Shown: one piece after another, positions 5,756-39,939 of the stretch | How positions within the stretch are numbered: position 1 is the first letter of the stretch | How the letters are laid out: every line of letters begins with the position of its first letter | Source: Candidatus Bathyarchaeia archaeon | Lineage (GTDB): Archaea > Thermoproteota > Bathyarchaeia > 40CM-2-53-6 | Assembly: GCA_049697135.1 (NCBI GenBank) | Contig: JBAVVE010000061.1 | Coordinates: 1-40,011 of the forward strand | Length of the DNA: 40,011 nt | Reading direction: 5' to 3' | The notes under the pieces: model-generated | The model's input: only the letters and a program-made list of their open reading frames with translations | Told to the model about the DNA's origin: nothing | Database searches by the model: none | Made by a program: the position numbers and the translations under genes

Positions 5756-6535
5756 ATGATGCCGCTTCTTCTGGTGTCGTTCTTGTTCTTGTCTTCTTTG
5801 AACATGACATGGTTGCCGTTCGTGTTCATTACTGAGGTCTCTCCCGAGTCTCCGATGATCTTTGACATGGTGACGGTGACTTGGCTTGTGCAGACTGATG
5901 TTTCAGTGCCCATAACGGTGGCTCAGTGGGATTTCGGAGACGGCACTGGGGGCGTAGACGCTCAGCAGAACATGACGGGCACGTTCTACATAACGCGGGC
6001 GCATGTCTACGCGGTGCCTGGCGACTATTATGTGCGTGTAGGTGTGGTGGATGCTTTGAATCGGACTGCTCAAGATGTTATAGCGGTCACGGTTCAGCCT
6101 CGTGCAACAGTAATCACTTTCAATGTGAATCCGGTGAATGTGAACTCCAGCTATGACGAGCACTTCACATTTGAGGCGAGTCTTGCGACGGATCAAGGAG
6201 TCACGCTGGTCGGTCAGCCGGTCGCTTTCTGGTACTCTCCCGTGCCTGTGAATCAAACAGCCGATGATATCAAGTGGTACTCGGCTGGAGGAGGACTAAC
6301 GAGCAACGGTGGACGCATCATGACTTTATGGGTTGCACCCTTCGACGGACAATACATATTCAAAGCTACATTCGATGGCGGCGAACTCTATGCTCCAACC
6401 GAAACAATCTACACCATGATTTGTCAAGTCACACCTGAGTTTGCGATGCCATCAGTAGTGCTGATCATCGGGTTTCTCTCAATCGTCTTTTGCAAGAGAA
6501 TAGGGCACCGACCGTCGGCCAGCATACACCTGTAA
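5756..6535 (+). CDS. PKD-domain surface protein with a PEF-CTERM-like C-terminal sorting signal
   Basis: WDFGDGTGG..HVYAVPGDYYVRVGVVDALN is a classic PKD signature. The C-terminus is TPEF + AMPSVVLIIGFLSIVFC + KR (PEF motif, TM helix, basic cluster). Confidence 0.75.
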   Translation: MMPLLLVSFLFLSSLNMTWLPFVFITEVSPESPMIFDMVTVTWLVQTDVSVPITVAQWDFGDGTGGVDAQQNMTGTFYITRAHVYAVPGDYYVRVGVVDALNRTAQDVIAVTVQPRATVITFNVNPVNVNSSYDEHFTFEASLATDQGVTLVGQPVAFWYSPVPVNQTADDIKWYSAGGGLTSNGGRIMTLWVAPFDGQYIFKATFDGGELYAPTETIYTMICQVTPEFAMPSVVLIIGFLSIVFCKRIGHRPSASIHL

Positions 6536-6559
6536 GTTTGGCTAGAAGCCGTAAGGCTT

Positions 6560-12487: not shown

Positions 12488-12493
12488 TCAAGA

Positions 12494-12814
12494 ATGAGTA
12501 GCCAAAACGCAGAGCAAGCCAACACGAAACACGCAGACGAGCTGAGAAAGCTCGGTGAAATATTCGGGCCCTTTATGCCAAGTATGCCCCGCTACAACTA
12601 TTGGACGCTAAACCTTGGAAAAGGAAAGGCAACCTACGCATTTGGCTGGACGACTGAAAGAGACTCGGACGGGAAATTCTCGGCTTTCATCTACCGAATA
12701 GTGAAGAAAGGCAAGACCTGGAAGCTATTGAAGTCTCTGAGCTACCGCAGACGAAAGGTTGCGAAAGCCAAAGCCTTGTCTTGGTACGAGAGCCGCCGCA
12801 AGACCTTGGACTGA
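12494..12814 (+). CDS. hypothetical small basic protein
   Basis: 106 aa, lying between the ATPase and the VWA gene on the same strand, with a 6-nt gap. Confidence 0.55.
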   Translation: MSSQNAEQANTKHADELRKLGEIFGPFMPSMPRYNYWTLNLGKGKATYAFGWTTERDSDGKFSAFIYRIVKKGKTWKLLKSLSYRRRKVAKAKALSWYESRRKTLD

Positions 12815-12844
12815 GAGCACGGAAGGAAGGAGAGACAAGCCCCT

Positions 12845-14683
12845 ATGATTCTTGATAACGATTTCCCAGAATACACCGAGACCGCCGAGAAGATAGATCG
12901 AGAACTCGCATACGTCAACTTCATTATTAGAAGACTCAACGAGGACAAGGTGCCTTATGTCCGGAACGGGATTATCTACATCCCAGAAAAGAAAGGCCCA
13001 GGTAGATTCAGCGCCGACATAACCCACGAAGGCGCCCACCTTGTCCGGGACCCAATCACCTACCCGGATTATGCAGAAGGGATTCACGCGATACACTCAC
13101 TTGTATGTCCCAATGACATGCGCGAAGCGGCAGACCTCGCTAATCGAGCCTCAGACCTCATTATCGAGAACTGGATTAGCCGCAGAAGTAAGACGCTCCG
13201 GGAAATTATGTTACCGGATATTCTCGCGTTATGGCGTGCGCACTCTTCTAACAAGGACCCGAAATGGCTCGCCCTCATGCAAGCATACGGGCAAATATAC
13301 GGACTTCGAGAAATTCCGCTTACTATGCCTGATTTCTGGGAAAAGATCAAGACCGCACTAAGAGACCCGGATCGTCTCAGCAAGTACGTTAAGATCGCTC
13401 AAGCTTTCACAGAATTACCGAGCACCCCAGCCCCGCCCCCAGAAGACGAGAAGCCACAAGAGAACCAGTCCGGAGAAGGCGAGCAGGAGCAGAGTCAGGA
13501 TCAGCAGCAGAGCGGAAGCGGACAGAGCAAGGACGAAGACAAGGGCCAAGACGAACAAGGGTCCGGCGACGAAGAAGAGGACACGGACGCAGACGACGAC
13601 AAAGACGGAGAGGACGAAGACGGAGAAGGCGACCGACAAGAAAAACAAAAAACAAAACACCAAAGCGAAAGCGAACAGACAGAAGAAGAGGACAAAGGAG
13701 AATATGAGGCCCGCCCCGCAGAACCAGACGCCCCGATCAATCCCACTCACGAAGACATGCAAACCGCTATTGAGACCGCTATGCAGAACAGTCAAGACGA
13801 TAGCGAGCTTAGAGAACGACTTGAAGAACTCAGCGCGATAGGTGCAGGTGTCGGAGCGGAAGAACTTCAAGAACTCCAGAACGATCAGTGGTTGAGGATT
13901 CTCCGATTCTACGAGACGAAAGCCGCGAAGATCACGTTAGCTATAGATTTTCCGAAGAGAGCAAGCCGCACAGCAACCGAGTTATCCACTCGGAAATGGC
14001 GCTTTAGCGATGGACTTCAAGCGATAGATCACGCAGCCACGATAATGAAGAAAGGCATTAACGTGCCTCTTGTCACAGCGCAGACCCCGCAGACCTTCAA
14101 CCGTGTAAGGCTTGATCGGAGAGGCCGAGAATCCCGCCCCTTAATCATGTCTTTTGATTGCTCCGGCTCAACCGGGCCACGTTTCGGAACTATGCGAGAG
14201 ATTAGGGACTGGGAAGCGATAACATTCTTAGCGATTCTTCGCCAAGCGAGGAAACTCGGTCAACAGATCGGATTTGATTTCTGGCATGACTACTTAGCGA
14301 AAGAAGCGAAGCCAACAGACCCCCGACAATTCACAGAGCTAAAGCGCCAATTCTTCCAGAACTACCCGGGCCCAATGTACGGAACCAGCATCACCCCAGC
14401 CCTACACAAAATAAAACAAAAACCAGACGAGGCATTCATGCTCATTACAGACGGAATAATCTCAGAGGGACGCGAACAACTCAGCAACGAAGCTAGAGGC
14501 ATATCAAATACGCTCGTTCTAATCTTCGCTCAGTTTGACCCGGACGCAGCCCAAAACCAAAGAGACGAGTACGTGCCAGCGTTTCAAGAAGCATTTGGCG
14601 CTAACCGGGTCCTCTTCATCGAGAAACTAACCGACTTGCCTAAGATCGCGTTAAAGTCTTGGAGGGACTGGTTTTGGGCGTGA
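12845..14683 (+). CDS. HExxH metallopeptidase-like N-domain + acidic linker + VWA (MIDAS) domain protein
   Basis: HEGAH motif (ITHEGAHLVRD). About 100 aa of D/E/Q/G/S low complexity (nt ~13430-13720). The C-terminal LIMSFDCSGSTG (DxSxS MIDAS) and MLITDGII resemble the DUF2201-type partner of MoxR ATPases. Confidence 0.8.
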   Translation: MILDNDFPEYTETAEKIDRELAYVNFIIRRLNEDKVPYVRNGIIYIPEKKGPGRFSADITHEGAHLVRDPITYPDYAEGIHAIHSLVCPNDMREAADLANRASDLIIENWISRRSKTLREIMLPDILALWRAHSSNKDPKWLALMQAYGQIYGLREIPLTMPDFWEKIKTALRDPDRLSKYVKIAQAFTELPSTPAPPPEDEKPQENQSGEGEQEQSQDQQQSGSGQSKDEDKGQDEQGSGDEEEDTDADDDKDGEDEDGEGDRQEKQKTKHQSESEQTEEEDKGEYEARPAEPDAPINPTHEDMQTAIETAMQNSQDDSELRERLEELSAIGAGVGAEELQELQNDQWLRILRFYETKAAKITLAIDFPKRASRTATELSTRKWRFSDGLQAIDHAATIMKKGINVPLVTAQTPQTFNRVRLDRRGRESRPLIMSFDCSGSTGPRFGTMREIRDWEAITFLAILRQARKLGQQIGFDFWHDYLAKEAKPTDPRQFTELKRQFFQNYPGPMYGTSITPALHKIKQKPDEAFMLITDGIISEGREQLSNEARGISNTLVLIFAQFDPDAAQNQRDEYVPAFQEAFGANRVLFIEKLTDLPKIALKSWRDWFWA

Positions 14684-15039
14684 GAAGGCTTTCAGGTGTA
14701 ATTGCGACCGAGTGCCAGTGGTGCTCTCTGGTGCGGTCTTGCCCGGCCTCAAAATTAGAGACACCTGACCATATTCGCTTGGCGTTCGATGATTGGCTAA
14801 CCCGGCTCCGGTTGGGTTCTGAGATCGAAAAGGTTCAGTTGCCGGGTGCTGTTGCGGCAGACCATAAACTAAACTCGCAAGACCTGATACGGTTCTTCCG
14901 GTTGGTGCTCAAAGCCGAGGATTCGCTTTCACCTGTAAATATGCTACCGTACCGAGAAAAGCAGCCACAGATTCCAACACTTACACCTGAAATTGGGCAT
15001 CTTCTCGGGCAACTGTTTCTAGGAGAGGCTGTCGCATGA
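14659..15039 (+). CDS. hypothetical protein
   Basis: 126-aa track ORF. The probable start is GTG 14680, overlapping the VWA stop (GTGA). Its stop overlaps the next start (ATGA 15036-15039). It contains three copies of the dyad motif. Confidence 0.5.
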   Translation: MEGLVLGVRRLSGVIATECQWCSLVRSCPASKLETPDHIRLAFDDWLTRLRLGSEIEKVQLPGAVAADHKLNSQDLIRFFRLVLKAEDSLSPVNMLPYREKQPQIPTLTPEIGHLLGQLFLGEAVA

Positions 15040-15434
15040 ATGTCACTCAGATTTCAATCCCAGTGGCAGAACAGCAATACTATGTCTGTAAATGGGAAGT
15101 GCCGAGTTTCAGTGATCCAAGCAAAGCCTACACTGTGAGCAAGACCGTCTCAGGAGACTATCAGTGCAGTTGTCCGCGCTGGACCAAATCGAAGCTGTAT
15201 CGTCGTCAGCAATGTAAGCACATTGATACTGTGCTGGGTCATCTTCCCCCGTCGCCGCCGCCTCAAAATAAGAGGCAGCCACGAGCGAAGCCCCGAGCGC
15301 CGAAGGCTCCCGTTAGGGTTACACCTGAAAGTGCAGTTGATCCTACCGAGACCGGACGCTTGTTTGGAAAACTGTTTGCGGACGAGGAAGTTCACGAGAC
15401 GACACGGAGAGCAAAGAACACAGTAGAGGCATGA
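15036..15434 (+). CDS. SWIM zinc-finger protein
   Basis: YQCSCPRWTKSKLYRRQQCKHI matches the CxCx(n)CxH SWIM signature. The tail is basic and Pro-rich. Confidence 0.75.
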   Translation: MNVTQISIPVAEQQYYVCKWEVPSFSDPSKAYTVSKTVSGDYQCSCPRWTKSKLYRRQQCKHIDTVLGHLPPSPPPQNKRQPRAKPRAPKAPVRVTPESAVDPTETGRLFGKLFADEEVHETTRRAKNTVEA

Positions 15435-15577
15435 GCAAACATGACTGAGCTATTGGGGGGAAGGCTTATTTCCACGCAAGCCCATTTGGGGTATAGCACA
15501 AAATTAGGGAGAGAATACATCATGTGACCAATAGGCCCGGGCAATCACCCTGACGAGGCCCGGCGAAACTCCCGAGT

Positions 15578-16393
15578 GTGGAGTTGGTGAAAGGTATGAG
15601 TAAAACAGAAACCGTAACCGTGACGCAGCCGCCCGATACTGAGCAGCTACGTCAAGAACTTGAACAGAAATTGTCCGGTGAACAGAAAGGCCAAAAAGGA
15701 AAAAAGGCGTTCGCCGGGTTCGATCTCAAACTCTCTTATGGAAGCAGAAGCGTCAACGTCGATACAGTCGTGAAGTTTGAGAAGCTGGACAGCAAAGAGA
15801 TAGACCAGCGCCTACAAAGCGAAATCTTCGCGGAAGCGGTCTTACCAGACGGTGCTCACGTGTCCGTACATAATGGGTACGCTCCGAAAGGCATGTCTCG
15901 TAAGGCATGGTGGAACCCAGACGAGACACAAGACTATCCAGAAACGATGATACACTGGTTCCAGGAGACAAGCGACGGCAAGTTCGAGGTAACACCGCCC
16001 CCACGCACTACCGAGCTTCAAGGAAAAGACGCTGAGACAATTCCAATGACGCAAGTTGAAGAATGGCTGTCTGAAAGCGAATACACGATATGGGCACACC
16101 CGAAGAAAGGCTCAGTCTCAGCACTCTGGGCAATCGCGGAAGACATGATAAAGACCGATACAGCGCGGAAGTGCGGCCCTTTCAGTTTCGGAGTCAAAAA
16201 CAGCTTCCGTGAATGCTGGGCTATCCTCTATCCGGTGAAGCGTGACGGAGAGTTCCTTCTGAAGATGCGCTTGGCCCGGGTTCACGTACACCTGAAACAT
16301 TTCATGCCAATGCCAATAACGAACGGTACACCAGCCCCGGTCCCGGTCGGTCCGAAGACAACACGGAAAGCCAAACACACACTAGAGGCATAA
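15578..16393 (+). CDS. hypothetical protein (weak Ku-like pattern), first gene of the ligase module
   Basis: 271-aa track ORF. The probable start is ATG 15596 (MSKTETV), behind GGTGAAAGG. The C-terminal half ..SALWAIAEDMIKTDTARKCGPFSFGVKNSFRECWAILYPVKRDGEFLLKMRL.. loosely parallels the bacterial Ku core. This is unverified. Confidence 0.6.
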   Translation: MELVKGMSKTETVTVTQPPDTEQLRQELEQKLSGEQKGQKGKKAFAGFDLKLSYGSRSVNVDTVVKFEKLDSKEIDQRLQSEIFAEAVLPDGAHVSVHNGYAPKGMSRKAWWNPDETQDYPETMIHWFQETSDGKFEVTPPPRTTELQGKDAETIPMTQVEEWLSESEYTIWAHPKKGSVSALWAIAEDMIKTDTARKCGPFSFGVKNSFRECWAILYPVKRDGEFLLKMRLARVHVHLKHFMPMPITNGTPAPVPVGPKTTRKAKHTLEA

Positions 16394-16398
16394 GCAAA

Positions 16399-16755
16399 TT
16401 GGCATTTGTGACAATCGGCCTATCAGGTGGCCTACTAGACTACGTGGAAGCATGGGCAAGCGAGGACTTAGCGAATAAAGACGCGGACCGGATCGCTCGG
16501 ATGTATGGCATTGACCCGAAAGGGAAAAACAGTTGGCACGACGACGACTCAGACGTGTACGTCAATGAGATTCAGCTAGAACCCGAACGCATGACTTCTG
16601 AAGAATGGGGGTTCTTCACGAATTGCTGGCTTGAAGGCATGAAGAAAGTGCGCCTCAGTGACAGTTGGGATTCAAACGATGAATCGCAACGACTACTCAA
16701 CGAAGTGGATCGGAAGCTCCTGAAACTGAAACCCCTACAGGTGAAAGCAGCATGA
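16399..16755 (+). CDS. hypothetical acidic protein
   Basis: 118 aa. Its stop overlaps the next start (ATGA 16752-16755). Confidence 0.55.
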   Translation: MAFVTIGLSGGLLDYVEAWASEDLANKDADRIARMYGIDPKGKNSWHDDDSDVYVNEIQLEPERMTSEEWGFFTNCWLEGMKKVRLSDSWDSNDESQRLLNEVDRKLLKLKPLQVKAA

Positions 16756-17177
16756 CGCTTGAACCTATCTCTGATCCGCTAGAGGCTGTGGATCGGGAGC
16801 TTGCGGAGAATGTTGCTAAGTGGATTCAGTTACGCGGTTCAGAGTTGCCCTACGATCCGACTAATCCCCCGCTGGACATGGACGGAGACGGAGAACCCTG
16901 TGAGGATGCGGCTTGCATGACCGCGCAGATCACAATACCAGTGGCTAAGTGCTATTCATGCGGAGCCGTATTCCCGGCAGGTATCGTGTCGAGGCCGATC
17001 TACTGTCCGGAATGTGGCACAATGAACAGCCGAGCACAAGCGATCAAACGTGCAGACGTACAGGTGTCGGAAATGGGTCTGTGTCTCTCAGAGTACTACA
17101 AGTGGCTAACAGGTCGAGAACCGCCCGAAGGCTGGACTCAGATAGACTTCGAGGAATACTTCCGAGCCGTGTGTTGA
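16752..17177 (+). CDS. zinc-ribbon protein
   Basis: 141 aa with the CYSCGAVF..YCPECG pair. Confidence 0.6.
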   Translation: MTLEPISDPLEAVDRELAENVAKWIQLRGSELPYDPTNPPLDMDGDGEPCEDAACMTAQITIPVAKCYSCGAVFPAGIVSRPIYCPECGTMNSRAQAIKRADVQVSEMGLCLSEYYKWLTGREPPEGWTQIDFEEYFRAVC

Positions 17178-17184
17178 AGTACAG

Positions 17185-17481
17185 GTGAATGATTTGCCAA
17201 CCTATACGACAGTAACGCATGTGGTAGAGTGCGACTCTTGTCCAGCAAAAGAGGGTCGCATTTCTACGACCACACTAGAAGACAACACGGGCGACCAGAT
17301 CAACACTGAATGTATCAAGTTCTATGAAGAGCTTCGCGGTAAAGGCTGGTGGATTGAAGACGACGGTACACTTTGTCCCAACTGTGGCGAGAATGAGGAA
17401 CTGCCGCTCGTAGCGAAGATCATGGGAAAGTCAAGCGCTCCGCAAACTTTGAGCAAGGTGGAGCTTTCAGGTGTAGGTTGA
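17185..17481 (+). CDS. zinc-ribbon protein
   Basis: 98 aa with ECDSCPAK..LCPNCG. GTG start. Its stop overlaps the ligase start (TTGA 17478-17481). Confidence 0.55.
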   Translation: MNDLPTYTTVTHVVECDSCPAKEGRISTTTLEDNTGDQINTECIKFYEELRGKGWWIEDDGTLCPNCGENEELPLVAKIMGKSSAPQTLSKVELSGVG

Positions 17482-18395
17482 TGCTTTCGTCTGTTGTGGT
17501 TCAGGCGACTGTTCCGAAAGTCAGTGAGGAACCGCTTAAGACATGGCTTGCGAAGAATCGACTCGGGCCCTACGCGGTTGAGCGGAAGATTGATGGTGAA
17601 AGGCTCCAGGTTGAAGTCTCCGCAAAAGTTGTGTCCTACGCGAACCGTCACACATTCCTAGCCTCCAACGGTGACTTGCCGAAGCTGTCTAAGGCGATCC
17701 TTGAGGCTACGCATGGTGAGGATTGCTGGCTTGACGGTGAGCTGACTACAGGTGTAAGTAGCGAGTTCTACGGCGAGAACGGGTACTTGGCGAATCGGGC
17801 GAACCGTGATGAGATGATCTATGTCGTCTTCGATATTCTCGGCTTGAACGGTGAAGATCTGCGGTTGAAATCGTACAGTGAGCGGAGACAGATTCTCGAA
17901 ACGACCTTGCGTGCGAATGAGAAGGTTCAGCTGGTCGAGGCGTGGACTTGTGAGACCGAGCAGAAGATCTTGCAGGTGTATGATCGAGTAGTCGCGGAAG
18001 GCGGCGAAGGCGTCATGGTGAAGCCGCACCCCAGTATCTACGCGAACAATGCTTGGGTGAAAATGAAGCATACTGCTACCGCTGATCTGGTGATCTTGGG
18101 TGTGATGAAGACGAAGGAGAGTTTCCTGATCGGTCATTACAGGTGTACGGAACCAGCCGGGTTCATCCGGTACGGGCGTGTTTCCGCGCATGGTTGGGAA
18201 GTTGTGAAAGAGACGGTTCTGAAAGCTGTGACTGGGGAAGACGCACAATTCTGGTACGTGCAGCCGTTCGTTGCTGTGGAGATCCGGCATAACGGCCTCA
18301 TCGAAACCTCAGAGGGCAAAACGTACCGTCATCCCCGAATCCTTCGCTTGAGGTTCGACAAATCCGTGAAAGACTGTGAGGCGCACAAAACTTGA
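17478..18395 (+). CDS. minimal ATP-dependent DNA ligase
   Basis: Motif I is AVERKIDGERLQV (KxDGxR), III is WLDGEL, IIIa is YVVFDIL, IV is EGVMVK and V is AWVKMK. At 305 aa it is nucleotidyltransferase plus OB only. Confidence 0.9.
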   Translation: MMLSSVVVQATVPKVSEEPLKTWLAKNRLGPYAVERKIDGERLQVEVSAKVVSYANRHTFLASNGDLPKLSKAILEATHGEDCWLDGELTTGVSSEFYGENGYLANRANRDEMIYVVFDILGLNGEDLRLKSYSERRQILETTLRANEKVQLVEAWTCETEQKILQVYDRVVAEGGEGVMVKPHPSIYANNAWVKMKHTATADLVILGVMKTKESFLIGHYRCTEPAGFIRYGRVSAHGWEVVKETVLKAVTGEDAQFWYVQPFVAVEIRHNGLIETSEGKTYRHPRILRLRFDKSVKDCEAHKT

Positions 18396-18706
18396 GCAAG
18401 AGCTCGGTGACTGATAAACCAACAAATGAAGCTGCGGCTCTAATCCAACTGTTCAATAGTAGTGAGCACCAAATCGAGAGAATTAGCGATAGGACCGATA
18501 AGGCGATTGAGCAACTTGAAGAAGAGGAACAGAAAATCTGGAACAGATACAATGCGGCAAACAGAATTGCGGAAACAGCTAAGATAAAAGCGCTTGAAAG
18601 ACTCCACAAGAAAGAGGAAACTCTGAACGCACAGAAGATGAAAGAGTGCGCGCCTTTTGACGCTAACCGTACGAAAGTAATCTCAAGAAGGATTGTGAAT
18701 GTCTAA
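18392..18706 (+). CDS. hypothetical coiled-coil protein
   Basis: 104 aa. TTG start overlapping the ligase stop (TTGA). Confidence 0.5.
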   Translation: MSKSSVTDKPTNEAAALIQLFNSSEHQIERISDRTDKAIEQLEEEEQKIWNRYNAANRIAETAKIKALERLHKKEETLNAQKMKECAPFDANRTKVISRRIVNV

Positions 18707-18876
18707 TGGCGCTTGAAGTAATTGCGAGGATTATCGACAAGGTTCCAGAATGCCCTTGCAGACGCAGTCAATACGGGCGCAGCCGCCATTACTATGGGGG
18801 CGGAAAGCGATGCCTCTATTGTGGGTACGAGAAGGGAACTGGGACGTTCTTGGCGAGAGAGGTAATCTCATCTTGA
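18706..18876 (+). CDS. 56-aa zinc-ribbon micro-ORF
   Basis: MALEVIARIIDKVPECPCRRSQYGRSRHYYGGGKRCLYCGYEKGTGTFLAREVISS. Its start overlaps the upstream stop (TAATG). Its stop overlaps an in-frame TTG of the methyltransferase (TTGA 18873-18876). Confidence 0.4.
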   Translation: MALEVIARIIDKVPECPCRRSQYGRSRHYYGGGKRCLYCGYEKGTGTFLAREVISS

Positions 18877-19790
18877 AAGATCGTGAAACTCTTTTCGAGC
18901 CATATTGTGGCGCTGGAGGCATGGGCTCGGGCTTCGCACGCTACTTCCAGATCAGCTACGCTGTAGACGTGCTTCCGGAGGCCGTCGCAACCTATTCCGC
19001 GAACTTCCCAAGAGCCGATGTGCAGATCCGAGACATCCATGCTCTTTCAGGTGTAAGAGGCGACTTCGACGGAATCGCAGGCGTAATCGGCGGCCCTCCG
19101 TGCCAGAGTTGGAGTATCATCAACGTCAAACGTGGTGTCGGTGTGGACCCACGTCGAGAGCTCTGCCAAGAGTTCATGCGTCTCGTAGTGGAGATCCGGC
19201 CACGCTTCTTTGTGCTCGAAAATGTGCCGTTCGTGCCGAAACAGGTGAAGGAGACCTGTCGGAAAATTGGTCTCGATAATCATTACACCTGTAAGACTGA
19301 GTACCTTGACGCGAGCGATTACGGATCTGCCCAAACACGGAAACGCTGGCTTCTAATCGGCCTCAGAAACGGAACGATGCGAGAGCCACGGAGAACTCAG
19401 AGCAAGACCGTTCGTGATGCCTTCCAAGGGCTGCACAAAAATTGGGGCATGATGCAGTCAAGCCCTGACATGCTCGCTCGTCTTTCAGGTGTAAAGTCCT
19501 GTGAGTGGGTGCCGATCTCCCAGGGAGGTTTCAGGAACGCCTGTCGCCTCAACTGGGATAGGCCATCTCCTACGGTTGTGAATCTCAAGAAGGTCTACAT
19601 GGTTCACCCAGATGAGGATCGGAACATCTCATTGGCGGAAGCGGCGGCTCTACAGGGATTCCGAGCTGGCTTCACATGGAAGGGCACTGAGTCGAAGATC
19701 GCTCAAATGATCGCCAATGCGATGCCTGTCCAACTCGCGGAAGCAATCGCGGAATCGCTATCGCTCAATGAGGGGCGAATGGAAACATGA
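18750..19790 (+). CDS. DNA (cytosine-5) methyltransferase
   Basis: Motif I is FEPYCGAGGMGSGF, IV is GGPPCQSWS, VI is FVLENVP, VIII is SAQTRKRWLLIG and X is IANAMPVQLAEAI. The real start is probably TTG 18873 (MKDRETLFEPYCGAGG). Confidence 0.9.
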   Translation: MPLQTQSIRAQPPLLWGRKAMPLLWVREGNWDVLGERGNLILKDRETLFEPYCGAGGMGSGFARYFQISYAVDVLPEAVATYSANFPRADVQIRDIHALSGVRGDFDGIAGVIGGPPCQSWSIINVKRGVGVDPRRELCQEFMRLVVEIRPRFFVLENVPFVPKQVKETCRKIGLDNHYTCKTEYLDASDYGSAQTRKRWLLIGLRNGTMREPRRTQSKTVRDAFQGLHKNWGMMQSSPDMLARLSGVKSCEWVPISQGGFRNACRLNWDRPSPTVVNLKKVYMVHPDEDRNISLAEAAALQGFRAGFTWKGTESKIAQMIANAMPVQLAEAIAESLSLNEGRMET

Positions 19791-20080
19791 GTCTGCTTCT
19801 TCCCTCTTTTGTCGGGTTGCCTTCGCGTCTGCGCTGCTTCTTCTGTGGAGCGATAAGAGAGCGCCTCGCAATCCTTGAGAATTGCAGTGGCGTGATCATC
19901 TACCTTTGCTTTCACGGATGCCAGCATTTTCCTGAACCATTCCGCGATACGGGCCTAGTGGATGATTGGACGCGAATTGATCCGTGGCAGAACGTGAAAC
20001 GCCATCAGCCCAAATTACAGAAACAGTTCAGGAATTGGCAGGAATTGGCGAGGCAACGAAGCATTGGTGACGTGTCATGA
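19787..20080 (+). CDS. hypothetical protein
   Basis: 97 aa with ATGA overlaps to both neighbours (19787-19790 and 20077-20080). Confidence 0.5.
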   Translation: MSLLLPSFVGLPSRLRCFFCGAIRERLAILENCSGVIIYLCFHGCQHFPEPFRDTGLVDDWTRIDPWQNVKRHQPKLQKQFRNWQELARQRSIGDVS

Positions 20081-20727
20081 GTGACGCAATGCGGTACTTC
20101 TACTGTGCCAAGTGTGAGAAGCCTGTGGATTCTCCGAACGGGGAACATTTCCGGTCACATGGATACGATCTAGGATCTGCGCTTCGAGCAGGTCTAGCCG
20201 ATCAGTTGACTGAAACTGATTACAGGAGACTTACGCTTGCAGACGAGCGACGGGAAGCAAAGCTGCAAGCCTACAACTATCGCGCAAAGCACTCGCTAGC
20301 AGAGCCTACAGCATGGTCCATAGTTGTTGATGTCTGGAACAAGTTGAAGGAGGAGCAGCTCAAGAGGAATCCGTGGCACCACCACTTCTGGATGCCGCCG
20401 ATCAAAGCAGGACAACGTAAGGATGCAAGATTCTATCGTGCTCTACAGACCGTTCTCTGGGATACTCGCAGTGTGCCCGAGGACGAGCACACGGTAATTG
20501 TGCTTGCGGGTGCTCCTTCACATGTATGTGAGAGGGATGGGCTATTCTTCTCGGATCGCAAGGGAGCACCACCGCGCCTATGGGTGTACTTCAACATCGA
20601 CAACGAGAGGAGGGCGCGGGAGCGAGCGTTACAGGTGAAAGTGCCCATTGAGGGTATAACCTTAAGACATGCAACAGCCGAAGCCTATTCGATTACGGGG
20701 GCTCATCTTGGCAAAGGAGGAGAATAG
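20077..20727 (+). CDS. hypothetical protein with an N-terminal CxxC
   Basis: 216 aa with YFYCAKCEKPV. The C-terminal ERALQVKVP segment shares 27 identical nt with ORF 21848. Confidence 0.6.
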   Translation: MSDAMRYFYCAKCEKPVDSPNGEHFRSHGYDLGSALRAGLADQLTETDYRRLTLADERREAKLQAYNYRAKHSLAEPTAWSIVVDVWNKLKEEQLKRNPWHHHFWMPPIKAGQRKDARFYRALQTVLWDTRSVPEDEHTVIVLAGAPSHVCERDGLFFSDRKGAPPRLWVYFNIDNERRARERALQVKVPIEGITLRHATAEAYSITGAHLGKGGE

Positions 20728-20728
20728 T

Positions 20729-21154
20729 TTGGGTAAGGCTCAGATGCTCACGGAACGGTACGCGCCGTTTCTTGTTGGGTTCTTGACGCCAATCGTGATC
20801 ACAATCACAGTTGCAATCAATACTTGGGCTTGGGATGTGCGACACTACGCTGATCCAGTTGCGGTCTTCTTAGCAACATACGAGACGCCAGCACTCTTGG
20901 GTTTCATCGCCATCTATGCAGGAATGGGCGTAGTTGTGCATTTCCTCAGTCGAGGACTTGGCAAGGTGCCGCTGATGGCGAAGTTGACAATCAGTGTTGC
21001 GGTTACAGTAGCATTGGTGACATCGTACAACTCGATTCTTGGTCTGCCGCCTCTCATTCAGGATCTTGCCTTCAACACCATCGTTGCCCTTTGCATCGCA
21101 ACTATCCTCGTACTGGTCGCAGGGTGGGGTTCAAAGAACATTGAAGAACATTGA
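20729..21154 (+). CDS. integral membrane protein
   Basis: Track ORF 20669-21154. TTG 20729 lies 8 nt after AAGGAGG and 1 nt after the upstream stop. It has four TM helices. Confidence 0.6.
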   Translation: MGKAQMLTERYAPFLVGFLTPIVITITVAINTWAWDVRHYADPVAVFLATYETPALLGFIAIYAGMGVVVHFLSRGLGKVPLMAKLTISVAVTVALVTSYNSILGLPPLIQDLAFNTIVALCIATILVLVAGWGSKNIEEH

Positions 21155-21242
21155 AGAGAAGAGGCTCATTCAAGGCCTATTCTTCATCGCCTATGTGGCC
21201 AAAGAGCATCAACTCAAAGTTTGTGAGGTTAAGGTGTAGAAG

Positions 21243-21449
21243 TTGGGTCGTCAGAGAGTTCATCGTGAGGCACGGAGTGGAGTCGTCGCATTGCGTGTTC
21301 TTGTGCAGGAACGAGGCCGCTTCACCATTCCTGAGGAGATCCGGAGGGTCTCTAAGATAGAGCCAGGTACGCTCGTCGTCGTGGAAGCGAACCGTAAGGA
21401 CCCCGGCCACATCCACATACGTGTACTACAAGTCAAGGATGAGAAATGA
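21243..21449 (+). CDS. AbrB/SpoVT/MazE-family DNA-binding protein
   Basis: VVALRVLVQERGRFTIPEEIRRVSKIEPGTLVVVEA shows the typical swapped-hairpin signature (..tIPkeiR..l.i..G..v.v). Confidence 0.7.
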   Translation: MGRQRVHREARSGVVALRVLVQERGRFTIPEEIRRVSKIEPGTLVVVEANRKDPGHIHIRVLQVKDEK

Positions 21450-21678
21450 AGCGATCATGACTAAGCCAACCATCTCAGATGAACTGCTTACGAAAGTAGG
21501 GCTGCAAATGGTTACACATGTTAACCTGTGGTGATATGCTACATGGAAATGGGCTCTGGAAGAAGACAAGGGAGTTGTAGCAGCAAGTGCAATTCAATCC
21601 TAAATGTATCGCCCAGAGACTTTCACCTGTAATTCACGGCTGGCATAGGCTTATCTAGTCCGATGCCCACAATGGGTA

Positions 21679-21765
21679 TTGGTGAAAGGCGTGAGTAGAG
21701 AATCAACCCCTACCTTGTCGGAGCCGCCGCGTGTGCAGCTCCCTGGAGCTATCAACTGCGGAGGC
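21679..21765 (+). pseudogene. relic of a paralogue of the 15578 gene start
   Basis: TTGGTGAAAGGCGTGAGTAGAGAATCAACCCCTACC.. aligns with TTGGTGAAAGGTATGAGTAAAACAGAAACCGTAACC.. at 15584. VSRESTPTLSEPPRVQL corresponds to MSKTETVTVTQPPDTEQL. It terminates after 27 codons. Confidence 0.5.
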
Positions 21766-21847
21766 AAGCTGACTTGAACTTGGAAGAGATTCTCCAAATC
21801 AGCGCATACCAGAAGCGACGGAATCTGCGTAGACTCTTTTCGTTACT

Positions 21848-22123
21848 GTGGTGACGCAGACAATGAGCGAAGATAAGAAGATCCCGGTAATCTTAACCGT
21901 CAAGGAGCGAGCGTTACAGGTGAAAGTGCCGGTTACGCGGACAAGCGATTTGGATGACTTGGAGGGGGAGCCGCAGCCGGAAGCGAAGGACATCGGCAGA
22001 ATCTTCTACGAGAACGGTCAAGCCTGGACTGTAACTACAGGTGCAGATTCCGAGCTCGTATGGAAGCCTTTGACTTTAACCGAAGTCGGAGATATGGTAC
22101 GGGGGAAACCAAGCCAATGCTGA
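21848..22123 (+). CDS. hypothetical mosaic protein
   Basis: 91 aa. The N-terminal part shares ERALQVKVP (27 nt) with ORF 20077. The middle shares EAKDIGRIFYENGQA with the partial ORF at the window end. Confidence 0.5.
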   Translation: MVTQTMSEDKKIPVILTVKERALQVKVPVTRTSDLDDLEGEPQPEAKDIGRIFYENGQAWTVTTGADSELVWKPLTLTEVGDMVRGKPSQC

Positions 22124-22338
22124 TGAGGAATCTGCGAGACCTAGTTATGATCTCGCTCGGAATTGCGATCTTTGTTGCCAGTTTCACGGTAATTCCTCTT
22201 ATTGCATTCAATCAATACTTGGAAATGGGGTCAATCGCTCTAGCGATATACTTGCCTTTGTTAATTCCCGGTGGGCTACTACTCCCTGATCTCATTGCTG
22301 ATATAAGAAAATTGAGGCAAGCGCGAAAGGAGGGTTGA
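22117..22338 (+). CDS. small membrane protein (2 TM)
   Basis: ATG 22117 overlaps the upstream stop (ATGCTGA). Sequence: MLMRNLRDLVMISLGIAIFVASFTVIPLIAF.. Confidence 0.55.
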   Translation: MLMRNLRDLVMISLGIAIFVASFTVIPLIAFNQYLEMGSIALAIYLPLLIPGGLLLPDLIADIRKLRQARKEG

Positions 22339-22344
22339 GGGCAA

Positions 22345-22851
22345 ATGGGGCGGATTTTGGATTACAAAGGGTTCGCTGTAGTAGTCGATGAGCATTCAGG
22401 TGTATTTTTCGCCTACTCGATAGATCATACAACTCACACGTATGGACCTGATGAGATTGCAGAGGCAAGCAACCTGCCTGATCTGAAGAGCAAGCTCGAT
22501 CAAATATCAAAGGGCAGTCTTGGGCAGACTTGTCTAATTCTCGCAAGGTACTTGCATTCGAACAGTGAAGACCAGGTGTTCTTCAAGGGAAAGGTTACTT
22601 CCATCAAAGAAGAATCATCATTGGGAACAACCTTCCGAGTAGCCTTCAAGGAGGGCGACCATTTTGGCCGACAAGAATTACATGCCGGACAGATTTTCAA
22701 AGACAACGAACCGAACCAGAAGATCATGCTTGAACTTCAACAGATCGAACACGAAGTCACGGAGCTAGAGAAACGTAGAGAAGCTCTGACGAGGACACTA
22801 GAACCGTTCACAGAAAAAGAGCTCCAGGAAGCTAGTCGGGTGAAAGCGTGA
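22345..22851 (+). CDS. hypothetical protein
   Basis: 168 aa. Its stop overlaps the next start (GTGATGG). Confidence 0.55.
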   Translation: MGRILDYKGFAVVVDEHSGVFFAYSIDHTTHTYGPDEIAEASNLPDLKSKLDQISKGSLGQTCLILARYLHSNSEDQVFFKGKVTSIKEESSLGTTFRVAFKEGDHFGRQELHAGQIFKDNEPNQKIMLELQQIEHEVTELEKRREALTRTLEPFTEKELQEASRVKA

Positions 22852-25732: not shown

Positions 25733-25772
25733 GAAGCATGAATCTCCCGACTTCAGTTGCGGAGAGTGTCAA
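25640..25772 (+). ncRNA. putative omega-RNA (reRNA) scaffold of the TnpB element; terminal hairpin is repeat copy 2 (25740-25772)
   Basis: By analogy with TnpB systems, the guide RNA overlaps the tnpB 3' end and stops at the right end. GAATCTCCCGACTTCAGTTGCGGAGAGTGTCAA folds as UCUCC(C)GAC-uuca-GUUG(C)GGAGA. The 5' limit is a guess. Confidence 0.35.
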
Positions 25773-26835
25773 ATTGGAGACCGTTGTTCATAATGTGGTG
25801 GGGGAGCCGCGTTGCCCACATTGCCTTGTGTGGAGTCCGAAGGATGCAGACTACTGTGCGAATTGCGGCTTGAAGTTCGCTCCTGCGCCTGTGAGGGATG
25901 CAGCTTGGTTTGCGGCTGTGAGAACGAACACTCGACATTTCTATGATTCTCTTCATTTGCCACCGCTTAGTCTTCTGATGCAGGTGCCAGAAGGCGATGA
26001 TGAGATCGCCACTGACCAGAGAATATTGCTTTGTGTCGGCGAGGCTGCCAGTGGGAAAACCGCGAAGACCAACCGAATCATCCGTTATCTCGTACAGGTC
26101 TATGGTGCGGAGAATGTGGCTGTGCTCAGCGCGAACGGTGAAGAGTTCCGTCAAATCATGGCGGGTCCGTGGCCTCACTGCCTCGTGATCGTTATCAGAA
26201 TGGAGGATGCTACGGAAGTCAAGTTCACGCATGAGGAGATTCGTGATTTCTTCCGTAGCCGTCACATCATGCACGAACGCACAGGCCAGAGAAACGGCTT
26301 GGTGGTTTTGATGTTCACGGTTCATAACCTGTATGATGTTCAGAAGGAGTTGCGAACGAAGGTTCCTCTGCTGCTTCTGTCGGATGTGCCTACGAATACG
26401 TGGGATCTGCGTGACACACGCACCTATCTGATTCCAGATAAGAAGGATGAGGAGTGTCTCAGACAGCTTAGTTTAGAGCGGTTGGTGGATCGTGATCTGC
26501 GACGGTACTGCTATTTCATCGAATCCGGTCGACCTGTCGGGATCGTGGATCTACCTCGGGTTCCTCCTGCACCTCCACCACAGCGGAAGCCCACTCATCG
26601 GATTTTCCGCCTGTTTCATGGGAAGCCACACACTGAAACTAGAAGCCAGCCGCCTGCAACTCTTACAACTCTTACACCTGTACGTCCACCACTGCGTCCA
26701 GTTGAGAATCCCGCTAGATCGTCCGGAGAGCAGGAAACGCAGCGAAAGAAATGGCATTATGGTTTGCTCGCACTTTTTCTCATAGGCGTAGCTGCATTCG
26801 TTTTGCGCTTGCTGCTCCCGGTGCTGATCCCCTAG
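25678..26835 (+). CDS. zinc-ribbon + P-loop NTPase with a Pro-rich linker and C-terminal TM anchor
   Basis: CPHCLVWSPKDADYCANCG. Walker A-like is VGEAASGKTAKT. The hydrophobic strand before an acidic residue is CLVIVIRMED. The C-terminus is PPAPPPQRKP.. then GLLALFLIGVAAFVLRLLLPVLIP. The real start is probably TTG 25774 or GTG 25795, after the IS end. Confidence 0.6.
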   Translation: MAYASEVELSEMGSVRSMRSMNLPTSVAESVKLETVVHNVVGEPRCPHCLVWSPKDADYCANCGLKFAPAPVRDAAWFAAVRTNTRHFYDSLHLPPLSLLMQVPEGDDEIATDQRILLCVGEAASGKTAKTNRIIRYLVQVYGAENVAVLSANGEEFRQIMAGPWPHCLVIVIRMEDATEVKFTHEEIRDFFRSRHIMHERTGQRNGLVVLMFTVHNLYDVQKELRTKVPLLLLSDVPTNTWDLRDTRTYLIPDKKDEECLRQLSLERLVDRDLRRYCYFIESGRPVGIVDLPRVPPAPPPQRKPTHRIFRLFHGKPHTETRSQPPATLTTLTPVRPPLRPVENPARSSGEQETQRKKWHYGLLALFLIGVAAFVLRLLLPVLIP

Positions 26836-31077: not shown

Positions 31078-31563
31078 GTGAGGAAATCGGTTTTGTCTTC
31101 TGACCGGCGCAGCCTATACGGTGGACGCAAGCGTAGAGGTATGCGGCATGTTGTAGTTGCGGTGCCTCGTCCACGTCCTGGGCAACATCACCTGAAAGGG
31201 ATCGTTGTGGAGGCGCCGCCTGAATTGAGGCGTTTCAAGGAAGCAGGGCTTGACAATCCGAAAACACTGGACCCTGCTAAGTTGAGGGGAGGAGAAACAA
31301 CTGCCTACACCTACCGTGGATACAATCCGAAGAAGTATAACCCAAAGGATCCGGGGCGTACAGGTGTAAGGGACATAAAGACTGTGCCCTCCTCACAGAT
31401 ACGAGAGTTGCAGAAGGAAGTGAGAGGCGACTTAGGTGGTGCCTTGAGTGCAAGCGCGGAATCCAGCCATGAGCCTCGTAGATACGTTCAACGGACCGTC
31501 AAAACGCCTAAAGGGATACGTCACCGCCCGGCGATAAGTGTCCGCAAATTCCTCGAATTATAG
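31078..31563 (+). CDS. basic hypothetical protein carrying the SSDRRxLYG module
   Basis: 161 aa with a GTG 31078 or TTG 31093 start. The ..GGRKRRGMRHVVVAVPRPRPG.. segment resembles the VAVVAVPGF N-terminus of the TnpB-like ORF. Confidence 0.5.
   Translation: MRKSVLSSDRRSLYGGRKRRGMRHVVVAVPRPRPGQHHLKGIVVEAPPELRRFKEAGLDNPKTLDPAKLRGGETTAYTYRGYNPKKYNPKDPGRTGVRDIKTVPSSQIRELQKEVRGDLGGALSASAESSHEPRRYVQRTVKTPKGIRHRPAISVRKFLEL
31093..31122 (+). repeat. SSDRRxLYG module, copy D
   Basis: TTG TCT TCT GAC CGG CGC AGC CTA TAC GGT = LSSDRRSLYG. CATTTTCTCTAGTGAGG box at 31067-31083. Confidence 0.7.
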
Positions 31564-31650: not shown

Positions 31651-31941
31651 AACGGAGGCTCTGGCAGAGGATTTCTTGGCCTTAGAAAAAAGACAGCCAA
31701 ATCCTCTATGCCGCAGCAGTCGCGTGTACCGACGAACATTATGATTGTCGTAGTGTCTCCGCCGGTAGCCAATCCCAAAGCAGTGCCTACAGGTGTAAGA
31801 GGACAGAAGCCAAGCCTCGAAATGGCGCAAGAGAAGACGACTGAAGAAACATCGGTCAACCATAAGGGCGATGAGCCCCAGCCCCAGCCCCAGGATGAGC
31901 AACGACGCAAAGGCATAGGTAGGTTTCTGAGGGCCGACTAA
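31621..31941 (+). CDS. hypothetical protein carrying the SSDRRxLYG module
   Basis: 106 aa with a TTG start, a Gly/Arg tail (GNGGSGRGFLGLRKK) and an acidic, Gln-rich C-terminus. Confidence 0.5.
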   Translation: MSSDRRKLYGNGGSGRGFLGLRKKTAKSSMPQQSRVPTNIMIVVVSPPVANPKAVPTGVRGQKPSLEMAQEKTTEETSVNHKGDEPQPQPQDEQRRKGIGRFLRAD

Positions 31942-39633: not shown

Positions 39634-39939
39634 ATGGCTACCGCAATAGTCTGCCTCACAGAAAGACATACAGGTGTATGCGGGATGATCGGGAAAAACG
39701 ATGGCGGAAAGATCAAGGGGACAGGTGTTGTGCGTGTGTGTTTGTGGGTTCCGAAGGGGCTTCTTGGCTTTCTAGGTGATCTCTTGAAGGTCACAGGGTC
39801 TGAGATGACGGTGACGGAGGTTCTGGAGAAGGAGCTGTCTATGTGTCCAGACGCGATTCTCAGTGAACTGCCAGACAACTGGTTCAATCCGCAACGCATC
39901 CGCAAGAAGTACAATCTGCCGGAACCAGAAGACTGCTAG
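39634..39939 (+). CDS. hypothetical protein
   Basis: 101 aa, divergent from the AbrB-like ORF. Confidence 0.45.
   Translation: MATAIVCLTERHTGVCGMIGKNDGGKIKGTGVVRVCLWVPKGLLGFLGDLLKVTGSEMTVTEVLEKELSMCPDAILSELPDNWFNPQRIRKKYNLPEPEDC

Follow-up and report, generated by a model that had tools for sequence, protein, structure and literature searches.

In the multi-operator immunity systems of temperate phages, the occupancy of an array of sites governs the expression of the genes around it. Stoperators are asymmetric sites which lie mostly in one orientation relative to transcription and have a monomeric repressor as their reader (PMC6550527, PMC9283540). In replication, the core of the euryarchaeal ORB is GTTCCAGTGGAAAC (PMC1868953), and the 13-bp mini-ORBs of Pyrococcus are clustered, with some located within the dp1 coding sequence (PMC1904270).

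The window (the whole stretch of DNA analysed, 40,011 nt) belongs to an uncultivated virus-like element, which is probably archaeal. Like stoperators, its sites are numerous, lineage-specific and spread across a co-directional gene block; unlike them, they are pseudo-palindromic and oriented 14+/9- over one transcription direction. This random orientation excludes the strict stoperator class, and thus the analogy drawn in the first-pass annotation fits in function but not in membership.

Enrichment and distribution of the sites

The 10-mer TWCAGGTGWA has 23 copies in the window against 0.13 expected, and TTWCASSTGWAA has 12 against 0.06, the same total of variants as counted earlier by eye. 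The 11-mer TTTCAGGTGTA was again found eight times, with 0.00 expected from dinucleotide shuffles. Every near-copy previously listed was recovered at most 1-2 nt from its given position, the 27-nt identity of 20619-20645 and 21904-21930 is exact, and the symmetric form TTTCACGTGAAA is present at 10056.

In the coding control, synonymous codons were shuffled within genes for 1000 rounds. The enrichment survives: TWCAGGTGWA averaged 4.8 copies after shuffling with a maximum of 9, and the residual copies (~4-5) are mostly in intergenic sequence that was left unshuffled. The 12-mer (12 observed, mean 3.2) and the hexamer (55 observed, mean 26) were also in excess. The motif is real, and a coding artefact is ruled out as its source.

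The full site is 14 bp long (C-T-T-W-C-A-G-G-T-G-W-A-A-G), with no conservation beyond this length. Its centre is GG/CC in 23 cases and CG in one; GC is never seen, and the SS centre proposed earlier is to that extent too broad. Complementary W positions are confined to 8 of the 23 copies.

As the first-pass annotation had claimed, the copies concentrate in the DNA-metabolism module, where 17 of the 23 fall within 14600-22500 (7.9 kb, binomial p=3e-8). Each genome retains about 23 copies, and the co-directional early / DNA-metabolism block of ~8 kb holds three quarters of these. Their orientations follow one another at random (10 runs vs 11.95 expected, P=0.26). The copies of the module are the following:

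14689..14702, + strand: copy CTTTCAGGTGTAAT, 6 nt past the stop of the 612-aa gene and within the 5' end of ORF 14674-15039; unchanged in L126, L004, L134, L129 and L002
14926..14939, - strand (CAGGTG on this strand): within ORF 14674-15039; the sole difference in relatives is W-to-W, and ~90 bp around it are swapped in L004-type alleles
14980..14993, - strand: right edge of a block divergent vs L134 and L004
15318..15331, - strand: within the SWIM-like ORF 15036-15434, in its proline/arginine-rich linker; the L125 homologue has copies within the corresponding linker
16285..16298, - strand: close to the 3' end of ORF 15596-16393
16734..16747, + strand: 6-15 nt upstream of ATG 16752, also Shine-Dalgarno-like (AGGTG); relatives show a 6-nt indel immediately after it
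17057..17070, + strand: degenerate copy CGTACAGGTGTCGG, left end of a segment missing in L004/L126
17178..17191, + strand: junction of ORFs 16752-17177 and 17185-17481, right end of the 121-125-bp segment missing in L004/L126
17464..17477, + strand: directly upstream of the ligase start; orthologous copy in L125, L132 and L133
17745..17758, + strand: ligase codon ~90; orthologous in 5/5 ligase genes, with lineage-specific flanks
17969..17982, + strand: degenerate copy CTTGCAGGTGTATG, ligase codon ~165; a full copy in L126/L004, core flipped (CACCTG) in L125, lost (CATCTG) in L133
18136..18149, + strand: ligase codon ~221, window lineage only
19044..19057, + strand: within the accessory C5-methylase gene 18750-19790
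19282..19295, - strand: within the same C5-methylase gene
19482..19495, + strand: within the same C5-methylase gene
20628..20641, + strand: centre of the 27-nt exact direct repeat 20619-20645
21620..21633, - strand: in spacer 21450-21847; L126 homology restarts exactly at this copy
21913..21926, + strand: centre of the second 27-nt repeat 21904-21930; divides a 79.7% from a 92.7% identity block vs L126, with an indel (165 bp in L126, 25 bp in the window)
22393..22406, + strand: copy CATTCAGGTGTATT, within ORF 22345-22851

The outlying copies, and a single symmetric one, are located as follows:

6523..6536, - strand: overlaps the stop of a PKD-domain gene and precedes the wHTH gene 6560-6838 by 26-35 nt; retained in L004 and L129
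10056..10067, no strand: fully symmetric, the only copy centred on CACGTG, inside the non-coding control region 9867-10290
26671..26684, - strand: within ORF 25678-26835, conserved in L126
31046..31059, - strand: follows the stop of the intein-containing gene by 5 nt and precedes ORF 31078 by 19-32 nt
31357..31370, + strand: within ORF 31078-31563
31786..31799, + strand: within ORF 31621-31941
39667..39680, + strand: near the end of the window

The symmetric copy (TTCACGTGAAA) is retained in place in L002, L003, L004 and L129, while the region around it is otherwise variable. The same non-coding region also holds three iteron-like ATCCGTACC repeats.

With respect to genes, 17 copies are intra-ORF, in several reading frames, and for six of the 23 an ORF end is no more than 15 bp away (1.5 expected; p=0.003 in the whole window, p=0.065 within the module). 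The concentration at gene boundaries reported earlier was therefore overstated, and a weak excess near ORF ends is what stands of it. The distant relative L125 has half of its copies between genes (10 of 20), where 24% would be expected (p=0.011). The 612-aa protein preceding the first copy of the module had been labelled VWA; it has no match in Pfam, PHROG, NCBIfam or PDB.

Conservation and a predicted dimeric reader

Of 150 motif positions compared between the window and L126 (9.5% diverged), one is mismatched where 14.3 mismatches would be expected (p=5e-6). The adjoining 10-bp flanks are hypervariable (15% diverged, p=0.0014). Substitutions within the sites of all relatives are exclusively W-to-W, in + and - copies alike. 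The site is under purifying selection in both orientations, independently of coding.

A distant lineage (L125/L132/L133, ligase 66-69% identical) carries CGTACAGGTGTACG at comparable density in the corresponding module, in part at orthologous positions; GTACAGGTGTA occurs 11 times in 20.9 kb where 0 are expected. Comparison of the logos shows the lineages to diverge at the mirror positions -5/+6 (T..A to G..C); past 14 bp neither logo carries information. Both symmetric flank positions have changed in concert at all copies of a lineage, which is an indication of a two-fold symmetric DNA-binding protein. At ligase codon ~165, the flipped core alters the amino acids (LQV vs VHL), and thus the constraint is on DNA and not on protein. 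The architecture of a dimeric-protein site, already proposed from the window, is supported by this paired change, by the random orientation and by the lack of folding.

We tentatively regard the motif as a predicted pseudo-palindromic 14-bp site array of a two-fold symmetric (dimeric) protein that sets early-block expression, a reading which is quite possible. Judging from sequence, the site is predicted to be bound by a sequence-specific protein; CTTWCAGGTGWAAG would be the target of this two-fold symmetric binder, most likely element-encoded. By analogy with the phage immunity systems, array occupancy would set the expression state of the early / DNA-metabolism block. The output would be transcriptional control of the early module, which may act by temporal control or by silencing during a carrier or lysogenic state, through roadblock or occlusion. 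A symmetric reader predicts random copy orientation, as is observed. Intragenic copies would be tolerated only where the protein permits them, at gene junctions, in linkers and at termini. A side effect of the repeated 10-14-bp identity would be microhomology where relatives gain, lose or swap short segments.

One gene of the module is a candidate source of the binder:

21243..21449, + strand: AbrB/SpoVT-like gene, 68 aa, inferred candidate binder

Its product, with the signature RFTIPEEIR..I.PG, is conserved within the module of both lineages and is the sole recognisable DNA-binding-fold protein of the module common to both, which makes it the best candidate. No motif copy is found directly upstream of this gene. 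The strong wHTH gene 6560-6838 does have a copy upstream, but the gene is missing from relatives which retain that copy.

Some features of the sites count against an operator array. The strictly non-palindromic GG centre is not required by a simple homodimer, and operators do not usually lie inside genes, where the majority of these copies are found. No TATA-like promoter element was found at a fixed distance from the sites, leaving promoter occlusion unproven.

Recombination, replication and other readings

Since breakpoints are enriched and some copies sit in exact extended repeats, recombination might instead be the primary role, although we consider this unlikely. The sites would then be crossovers of a site-specific recombinase, or microhomology joints, by which co-infecting relatives swap small genes or segments. 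The shuffling of cassettes would be integron-, shufflon- or PeSL-like, with gene segments inserted, deleted, inverted or exchanged, and polarity would come from the asymmetric GG that separates the inverted half-sites, acting as crossover dinucleotide as in serine-recombinase sites.

The first-pass annotation had suggested module-junction recombination, and the comparison with five relatives is suggestive of it: for 8 of 47 homology breakpoints a site lies no more than 20 bp away (3.2 expected, P about 0.012), a modest enrichment. For instance, segment 17071-17176, flanked by two TACAGGTG copies, is missing in all relatives, segment 17192-17462 between copies varies in presence, mini-segment 14940-14978 has been swapped between two copies, and the identity border with its indel falls on copy 21913..21926. 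To these are added the hypervariable flanks, the 27-nt direct repeat of the window, a 48-nt exact inverted repeat of L125 (also centred on copies, arms 2986 nt apart) and a tyrosine recombinase gene at 1285-2286.

Other mosaic blocks, however, are not bounded by sites. For the 235-bp indel preceding the ligase, the junction is a CAAAC repeat and a copy lies internally, the divergent block 16398-16590 has a gene start as its border, and the 39-nt insert at 15037 carries its copy in the middle. Since gene ends are favoured by sites and by breakpoints alike, the link between the two may be indirect. None of the ORFs scanned showed a resolvase/invertase domain, and tyrosine recombinases fit poorly with a 2-bp spacer. 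A 14-bp site is short for either the tyrosine or the serine class. Nor does this reading explain why intragenic copies without rearrangement are strongly conserved.

It is rather improbable that a host or replication/segregation factor, and not a regulator, binds the sites, either as mini-ORB-like boxes for Orc1/Cdc6 or as centromere-like (parS/NBS-type) sites of a partition or nucleoid protein. Different hosts would in that case account for the lineage-specific flanks. The half-site is similar to known boxes, but identity with the euryarchaeal ORB core, which may not be that of the host, is 8-9/14 positions, with a 2-bp instead of a 1-bp dyad centre and no G-string. The CACGTG-centred copy reads TGTTTCACGTGAAA, which we take to match the bacterial parS consensus at 14/16 positions, and this conserved copy shares its region with the three iteron-like repeats. 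The sites also surround replication genes (ligase, and PCNA in relative L002). On the other hand, they are scattered across 8 kb of coding DNA and not clustered at a single intergenic origin, a strongly AT-rich unwinding element is missing from the module (AT maxima of the window are <=65% and mostly outside the module, the top one at 2486-2757), and no Orc1/Cdc6, MCM, ParA or ParB domains were detected in about 50 scanned ORFs.

A function in RNA, as an extended Shine-Dalgarno/translational operator or a small hairpin at intercistronic processing sites, is very improbable. Copies on the + strand are often 5-12 nt upstream of starts (at 16752, at the ligase in every lineage, and in L125, where an ATG comes after many of the copies), and AGGTG is the 3' part of the Shine-Dalgarno consensus. 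Nevertheless, the non-coding strand of the co-directional block carries 9 of the 23 copies, and these are conserved equally well, which largely refutes this reading, and most genes have ribosome-binding sites of GGAGG/GAGG type. L125-type copies could form a 5-bp hairpin (-5.1 to -5.6 kcal/mol), but the W positions seldom pair, 5 of 6 tested sequences, including three window copies, fold at 0 kcal/mol, and Rfam gave no match. Hence there is no conserved hairpin, and copies of the window lineage do not fold.

Equally remote is a DNA modification or restriction target with an epigenetic or self/non-self role, for example CACCTG for the C5 cytosine methyltransferase of the element (Pfam E=9.5e-44), whose gene lies in the module and contains three copies: restriction targets are usually depleted, not enriched 100-fold, a methylase site fits poorly with the 14-bp length and the symmetric flank co-variation, and the examined part of the L125 lineage showed no methylase. 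The restriction-modification proposal of the earlier reading fails in L126/L127, where the methylase gene is gone save for its last 24 codons and 15 of 15 aligned copies are kept, with one W-to-W change.

An array of 14-bp dyad sites

A dyad motif had been reported as strongly over-represented in the window by the first-pass annotation, and all of its counts hold: TTTCAGGTGTA is found 8 times (0.00 expected from dinucleotide-preserving shuffles), TTWCASSTGWAA 12 times (0.06 expected), and the near-copies lie within 1–2 nt of where it had placed them. TWCAGGTGWA is a better description of the motif, with 23 copies in the window and 0.13 expected. The logo of all copies, aligned on the CAGGTG strand, covers 14 bp (C-T-T-W-C-A-G-G-T-G-W-A-A-G), and information is absent outside these positions. 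In detail, the centre of the site is GG/CC in 23 of the 23 main copies, CG is met once (10056) and GC never. Seventeen of the 23 copies are located within 14.6–22.5 kb (p = 3e-8), that is, in a co-directional block of early and DNA-metabolism genes, hereafter the module.

As a coding control, synonymous codons were shuffled 1000 times inside each gene, preserving both the protein sequences and the codon usage. TWCAGGTGWA then occurs 4.8 times on average and 9 times at most, mainly as intergenic copies which were left unshuffled, compared with the 23 observed; for the hexamer the shuffles average 26 occurrences, and 55 are observed. An explanation of the motif as a coding artefact is therefore not supported. 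The array of 14-bp dyad sites is real, selected and lineage-specific, as the comparison with relatives also indicates.

The element and its relatives

The window is an array of genes lying nearly all on the + strand, with the following annotated features:

1285–2286, XerA-like tyrosine recombinase (match below threshold)
6560–6838, wHTH protein
11000–12487, MoxR-like AAA protein
17478–18395, ATP-dependent DNA ligase
18750–19790, C5 methylase
elsewhere in the window annotation, TnpB copies and an intein-containing gene
21243–21449 and 39436–39594, AbrB-like proteins
15036–15434, SWIM-like protein
16752–17177, Zn-ribbon protein

We take the element to be an uncultivated virus or an integrative element, and the XerA-like integrase, together with a PCNA encoded by a close relative, hints at an archaeal affiliation. 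A megablast search with 22 kb gave zero matches among 50,697 phage records. By tblastn among phage records, a 385-aa protein had no match and the ligase only matches of ~24% identity, while the AAA protein had no match in IMG/VR. Just a handful of relatives were found in the protein database, and a ligase profile search retrieved no provirus from 185,579 genomes and only four further metagenome contigs.

The relatives form two lineages. The close lineage (L002–L004, L126–L131, L134 and L135) shares ~90% DNA identity with the window and has the same motif in the same places. In the distant lineage (L125, L132 and L133), where ligase identity is 66–69%, CGTACAGGTGTACG is found in the same module at equal density, and GTACAGGTGTA occurs 11 times in 20.9 kb with 0 expected. 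Beyond these, a two-copy pattern scan of viral contigs had no hits other than Gly-X-Y repeats of the collagen type and a conserved gene of marine phages, and a three-copy scan of genome contigs gave no provirus, only unrelated collagen-like or tandem repeats. Two tandem arrays share the same core. The one, in a Methanosarcinaceae MAG (L204, 1669–1750), has six 14-bp units of TTACAGGTGAATAA preceded by a TACAGTTGAA variant; the second, in a Methanolobus MAG (L159, 4391–4540), is a coding array of the 15-bp unit TCTACAGGTGTATCA. Both are probably unrelated to the motif, since no cdc6 gene adjoins them in the 8 kb examined.

The AF2 model of a conserved 261-aa module protein has a mean pLDDT of 47.5, the predicted fold of a 201-aa protein consists of long helices (pLDDT 62.8), and PDB sequence searches with four proteins returned nothing useful.

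Upstream of the module, the two lineages differ by a non-homologous replacement. A classic AAA ATPase (PF00004) with DUF1257 and DUF2997 in L125 (5649–8025) occupies the same genomic position as window 11000–14683, where a MoxR-like AAA_5 protein and an unannotatable 612-aa protein are encoded.

Several other repeats are present in the window. A 33-nt repeat, GAATCTyCCGACTTCAGTyGCGGAGAGTGTCAA, is found three times (1247–1279, 25740–25772 and 36001–36033); one copy begins 8 nt past a TnpB stop (25732), like a transposon right end or an omega-RNA scaffold, and another abuts the integrase gene. TnpB fragments lie at 6937–7257 and 27799–29043. A 62-nt repeat (29027–29088 and 31595–31656) covers the start of two genes, from upstream sequence into their first codons; a shared 41-nt 5′ end (TTGTCTTCTGATCGGCG...) is found in four places, those at 27688 and 31093 included. 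These repeats mark a small paralogous gene family with one intein-bearing member (29053–31041). A 57-nt direct repeat (88% identical; 21967–22023 and 39955–40011) reaches the window end, a hint that a gene has been duplicated or that another related module follows past this point. Inside ORFs there are a 9-nt periodic repeat, CAACCGAAA, at 38048–38145 (ORF 37171–38586) and three 64-nt cysteine-codon-rich repeats at 9462–9771 (ORF 8907–9866).

Constraint on the sites and their putative reader

Between the window and L126, a close relative diverged by 9.5% overall, there is a single difference in 150 aligned motif positions, where 14.3 are expected (p = 5e-6). The 10-bp flanks on each side diverge above average (44 of 290 positions, p = 0.0014). 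In all relatives, substitutions within copies of both strands are limited to T/A exchanges at the two degenerate positions. The ligase codon alignment adds further observations. One copy precedes the start codon in every lineage, and another is placed around codon 90 in every lineage within lineage-specific flanks. Around codon 165, CAGGTG is found in the window lineage and L132, and the copy has disappeared from L133 (CATCTG). In L125 the flanks are unchanged and enclose CACCTG, which places the site on the opposite strand, and VHL is encoded in place of LQV. It is therefore the DNA site, rather than the peptide, which is under constraint.

Most copies in the window are intragenic and all usable frames are represented. 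The claim that they are concentrated at gene boundaries is thus only partly right, because the enrichment at gene ends is modest: 6 of the 23 copies lie ≤15 bp from an ORF end compared with 1.5 expected, with p = 0.003 for the whole window but p = 0.065 in the module. In L125, 6 of 20 copies are ≤15 bp from a gene end (p = 0.0045) and 10 of 20 are intergenic, with 24% expected (p = 0.011). Copies in the SWIM-like gene fall in a proline/arginine-rich linker in both lineages, as would be expected if sites become established at positions where the protein can accommodate them. In this way a dense array of sites coexists with coding sequence, its copies being found in linkers and termini and able to change strand with altered amino acids. 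The C5 methylase gene is accessory (present in L134 and L135, absent from L126 and L127) and already carries three copies in the window; therefore, genes resident in the module acquire or retain sites.

At the mirror positions −5 and +6, every copy is T..A in the one lineage and G..C in the other. The sequence evidence points to a putative reader which is a two-fold symmetric DNA-binding protein co-evolving with its sites. The dimeric-protein site architecture proposed from the window remains the predicted one, as the mirror flanks co-vary, strand choice is random and the site is not a hairpin. In detail, copies are oriented 14+/9− on the + strand gene block and form 10 runs with 11.95 expected (P = 0.26), a random strand order by which an orientation switch or fork-trap pattern is ruled out. 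Helical phasing was rejected by inspection, close pairs being spaced 33–68 bp apart and out of phase. Similarly, a hairpin or structured RNA is discarded: window copies have 0 kcal/mol, only copies of the L125 type fold, and weakly, the W positions are complementary in just 8 of 23 copies, and an Rfam search gave no match to the motif. A general Shine-Dalgarno role is also rejected, the ribosome-binding site here being GGAGG/GAGG, even if a start region is overlapped by some + strand copies.

The only recognizable DNA-binding-fold module protein common to both lineages is an AbrB/SpoVT-like protein of 64–68 aa, which is a candidate binder. The wHTH gene has a copy 26–35 nt upstream of its start, but relatives which lack the gene retain that copy, and its product is excluded as a universal binder. 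The change from T..A to G..C would represent a natural specificity switch between two lineages, with which simple in-vitro assays and co-variation could identify the binder.

Possible roles of the array

The sites of the array most likely bind a protein and serve regulation, with a secondary part in mosaicism, both the binder and the function being inferred. Taken on its own, regulation as the function is a tentative reading, which may well be correct. One protein acting on many operator-like sites of a long co-directional block would silence or time that block, and the parallel is with multi-operator phage immunity systems, which work in the same way.

The resemblance to stoperators, suggested in the first-pass annotation, can be kept as an analogy of organization. 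As in the Cluster A mycobacteriophages, there are dozens of copies at gene junctions and in gene interiors, the consensus is lineage-specific and shifted between groups (23 copies in the window, 20 in L125), and the probable role is the silencing of long co-directional transcription units. In Cluster A, the site consensus shifts between lineages along with the repressor (PMC6550527). On the contrary, membership of the stoperator family fails, because the stoperators of L5 and Bxb1 are asymmetric 13–14-bp words which mostly point the same way with respect to transcription, and their reader is a monomeric repressor with two domains (PMC6550527, PMC9283540). This HTH immunity repressor blocks elongation. 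Unlike the asymmetric 13-bp stoperators, the sites described here are 14-bp pseudo-dyads with mirror positions co-varying between lineages; their orientation is random (14+/9−), they are concentrated in one module rather than genome-wide, and the element is apparently archaeal.

Another comparison is with immunity systems whose multiple operators are palindromic or dispersed. The conserved inverted repeats of the Streptomyces phage phiC31 and the C1 operators of phage P1 comprise ~17–20 copies of a 17-bp site read by one repressor, concentrated in or scattered over early genes, and the phiC31 site has dyad symmetry. Most of those operators belong to intergenic promoters and have known binders, whereas most copies in this element are intragenic, promoter association is not visible and the binder is a candidate. 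We know of no previous description of such a genome-wide operator array in viruses or plasmids of archaea. If true, the regulatory reading would extend multi-operator control of the stoperator/phiC31 type to an uncultivated, apparently archaeal mobile element.

The main rival is recombination as the primary role, which is unlikely. Indels and replaced segments distinguish the relatives, and copies bound some of these: 17055–17179 lies between two TACAGGTG copies, 17192–17462 and 14940–14978 (the latter a replaced segment) each between two copies, and an identity step with an indel is located at 21915. Of 47 homology breakpoints, 8 are ≤20 bp from a site compared with 3.2 expected, an enrichment with P about 0.012, and exact extended repeats surround some copies, like the 27-nt direct repeat in the window. 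The asymmetric GG between inverted half-sites also looks like a crossover dinucleotide. However, several junctions fall outside sites, sites as well as junctions tend to lie at gene ends, and a suitable recombinase was not found: the scanned ORFs contain no resolvase domain and one XerA-like tyrosine recombinase (1285–2286), which is below threshold. The support for the junction-recombination proposal of the earlier annotation is suggestive. In L125, the arms of an exact inverted repeat of 48 nt (11649–11696 and 14683–14730), centred on a copy, enclose a 2986-nt segment; the segment could be invertible, or the repeat could result from recent gene conversion or from the assembly.

Repeated boundary elements which mediate gene shuffling are known as PeSL cassettes in T4-type phages and as "boundary sequences" in lambdoid phages. 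As in those systems, a short repeated sequence near gene ends, here putatively regulatory, coincides with the points where whole small genes distinguish the relatives. In contrast to PeSLs, which are intergenic promoter-plus-stem-loop units, the predicted 14-bp protein-type site is often intragenic and coincides with only part of the junctions. Under the regulatory reading, recombination is likely a by-product of the array, whose association with indel and mosaic junctions suggests a contribution of regulatory repeats to the gene shuffling of these genomes.

An origin or centromere function of the sites is quite unlikely. The half-site resembles that of ORB boxes (PMC1868953, PMC1904270), and both ORB and mini-ORB are short TTxCA..TGxAA-type dyads in multiple copies and both orientations; a mini-ORB cluster can even sit within a coding gene, as in Pyrococcus dp1 (PMC1904270). 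The ORB consensus is GTTCCAGTGGAAAC followed by a G-string (PMC1868953). The present sites differ in geometry, matching it at 8–9 of 14 positions with a 2-bp instead of a 1-bp centre, and they have no G-string or other information beyond ±7. Their copies are dispersed over 8 kb and mostly intragenic, and not gathered around an AT-rich unwinding element by orc1/cdc6; no strongly AT-rich stretch is present in the module, and the search for Orc1/Cdc6 among the scanned ORFs gave nothing beyond a P-loop match. The Methanothermobacter mini-ORB, which may resemble TTACAGTTGAAA, was not used as evidence.

The half-site is similarly close to that of parS, a 16-bp palindrome (TGTTNCACGTGAAACA) of the essentially bacterial ParABS system. 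The ParB and Noc sites (parS, NBS) are 14–16-bp palindromes with the half-site (G)TTTCAC in several dispersed intragenic copies, and TGTTTCACGTGAAAGG at 10053–10068 agrees with the parS consensus at 14 of 16 positions. The abundant form of the 23 main copies, on the other hand, has a GG centre and C instead of G at the outer position; neither ParA-type nor ParBc proteins were matched among the scanned ORFs.

An unrecognized recombination system using the dyad, with the invariant, asymmetric GG at its centre, as crossover site is very unlikely; its integron- or shufflon-like cassettes, with sites within reading frames, would let short coding segments and whole small genes of the early module be moved, inverted or deleted within and between these archaeal virus-like genomes. 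The proposal stays alive because GG resembles a crossover dinucleotide. The suggestion of a restriction-modification target is dismissed, as is dependence on the methylase, since the sites are retained in L126 and L127, from which the methylase gene is missing.

The single CACGTG-centred copy is conserved within the otherwise variable non-coding region 9867–10290 (~420 bp). Besides three ATCCGTACC repeats (9985, 10011 and 10024) and the conserved palindrome TTCACGTGAAA, this region has GGACGAC repeats and an A-rich tract. A TATA-like TTATATGCAAACCATATA precedes by ~40 nt the gene of the 201-aa protein (10291–10896), which is very conserved (96–98% identity among relatives). The copy may be a special primary site, or the region may be part of an origin or a master control region; the segment 9883–10113 is replaced in relatives.
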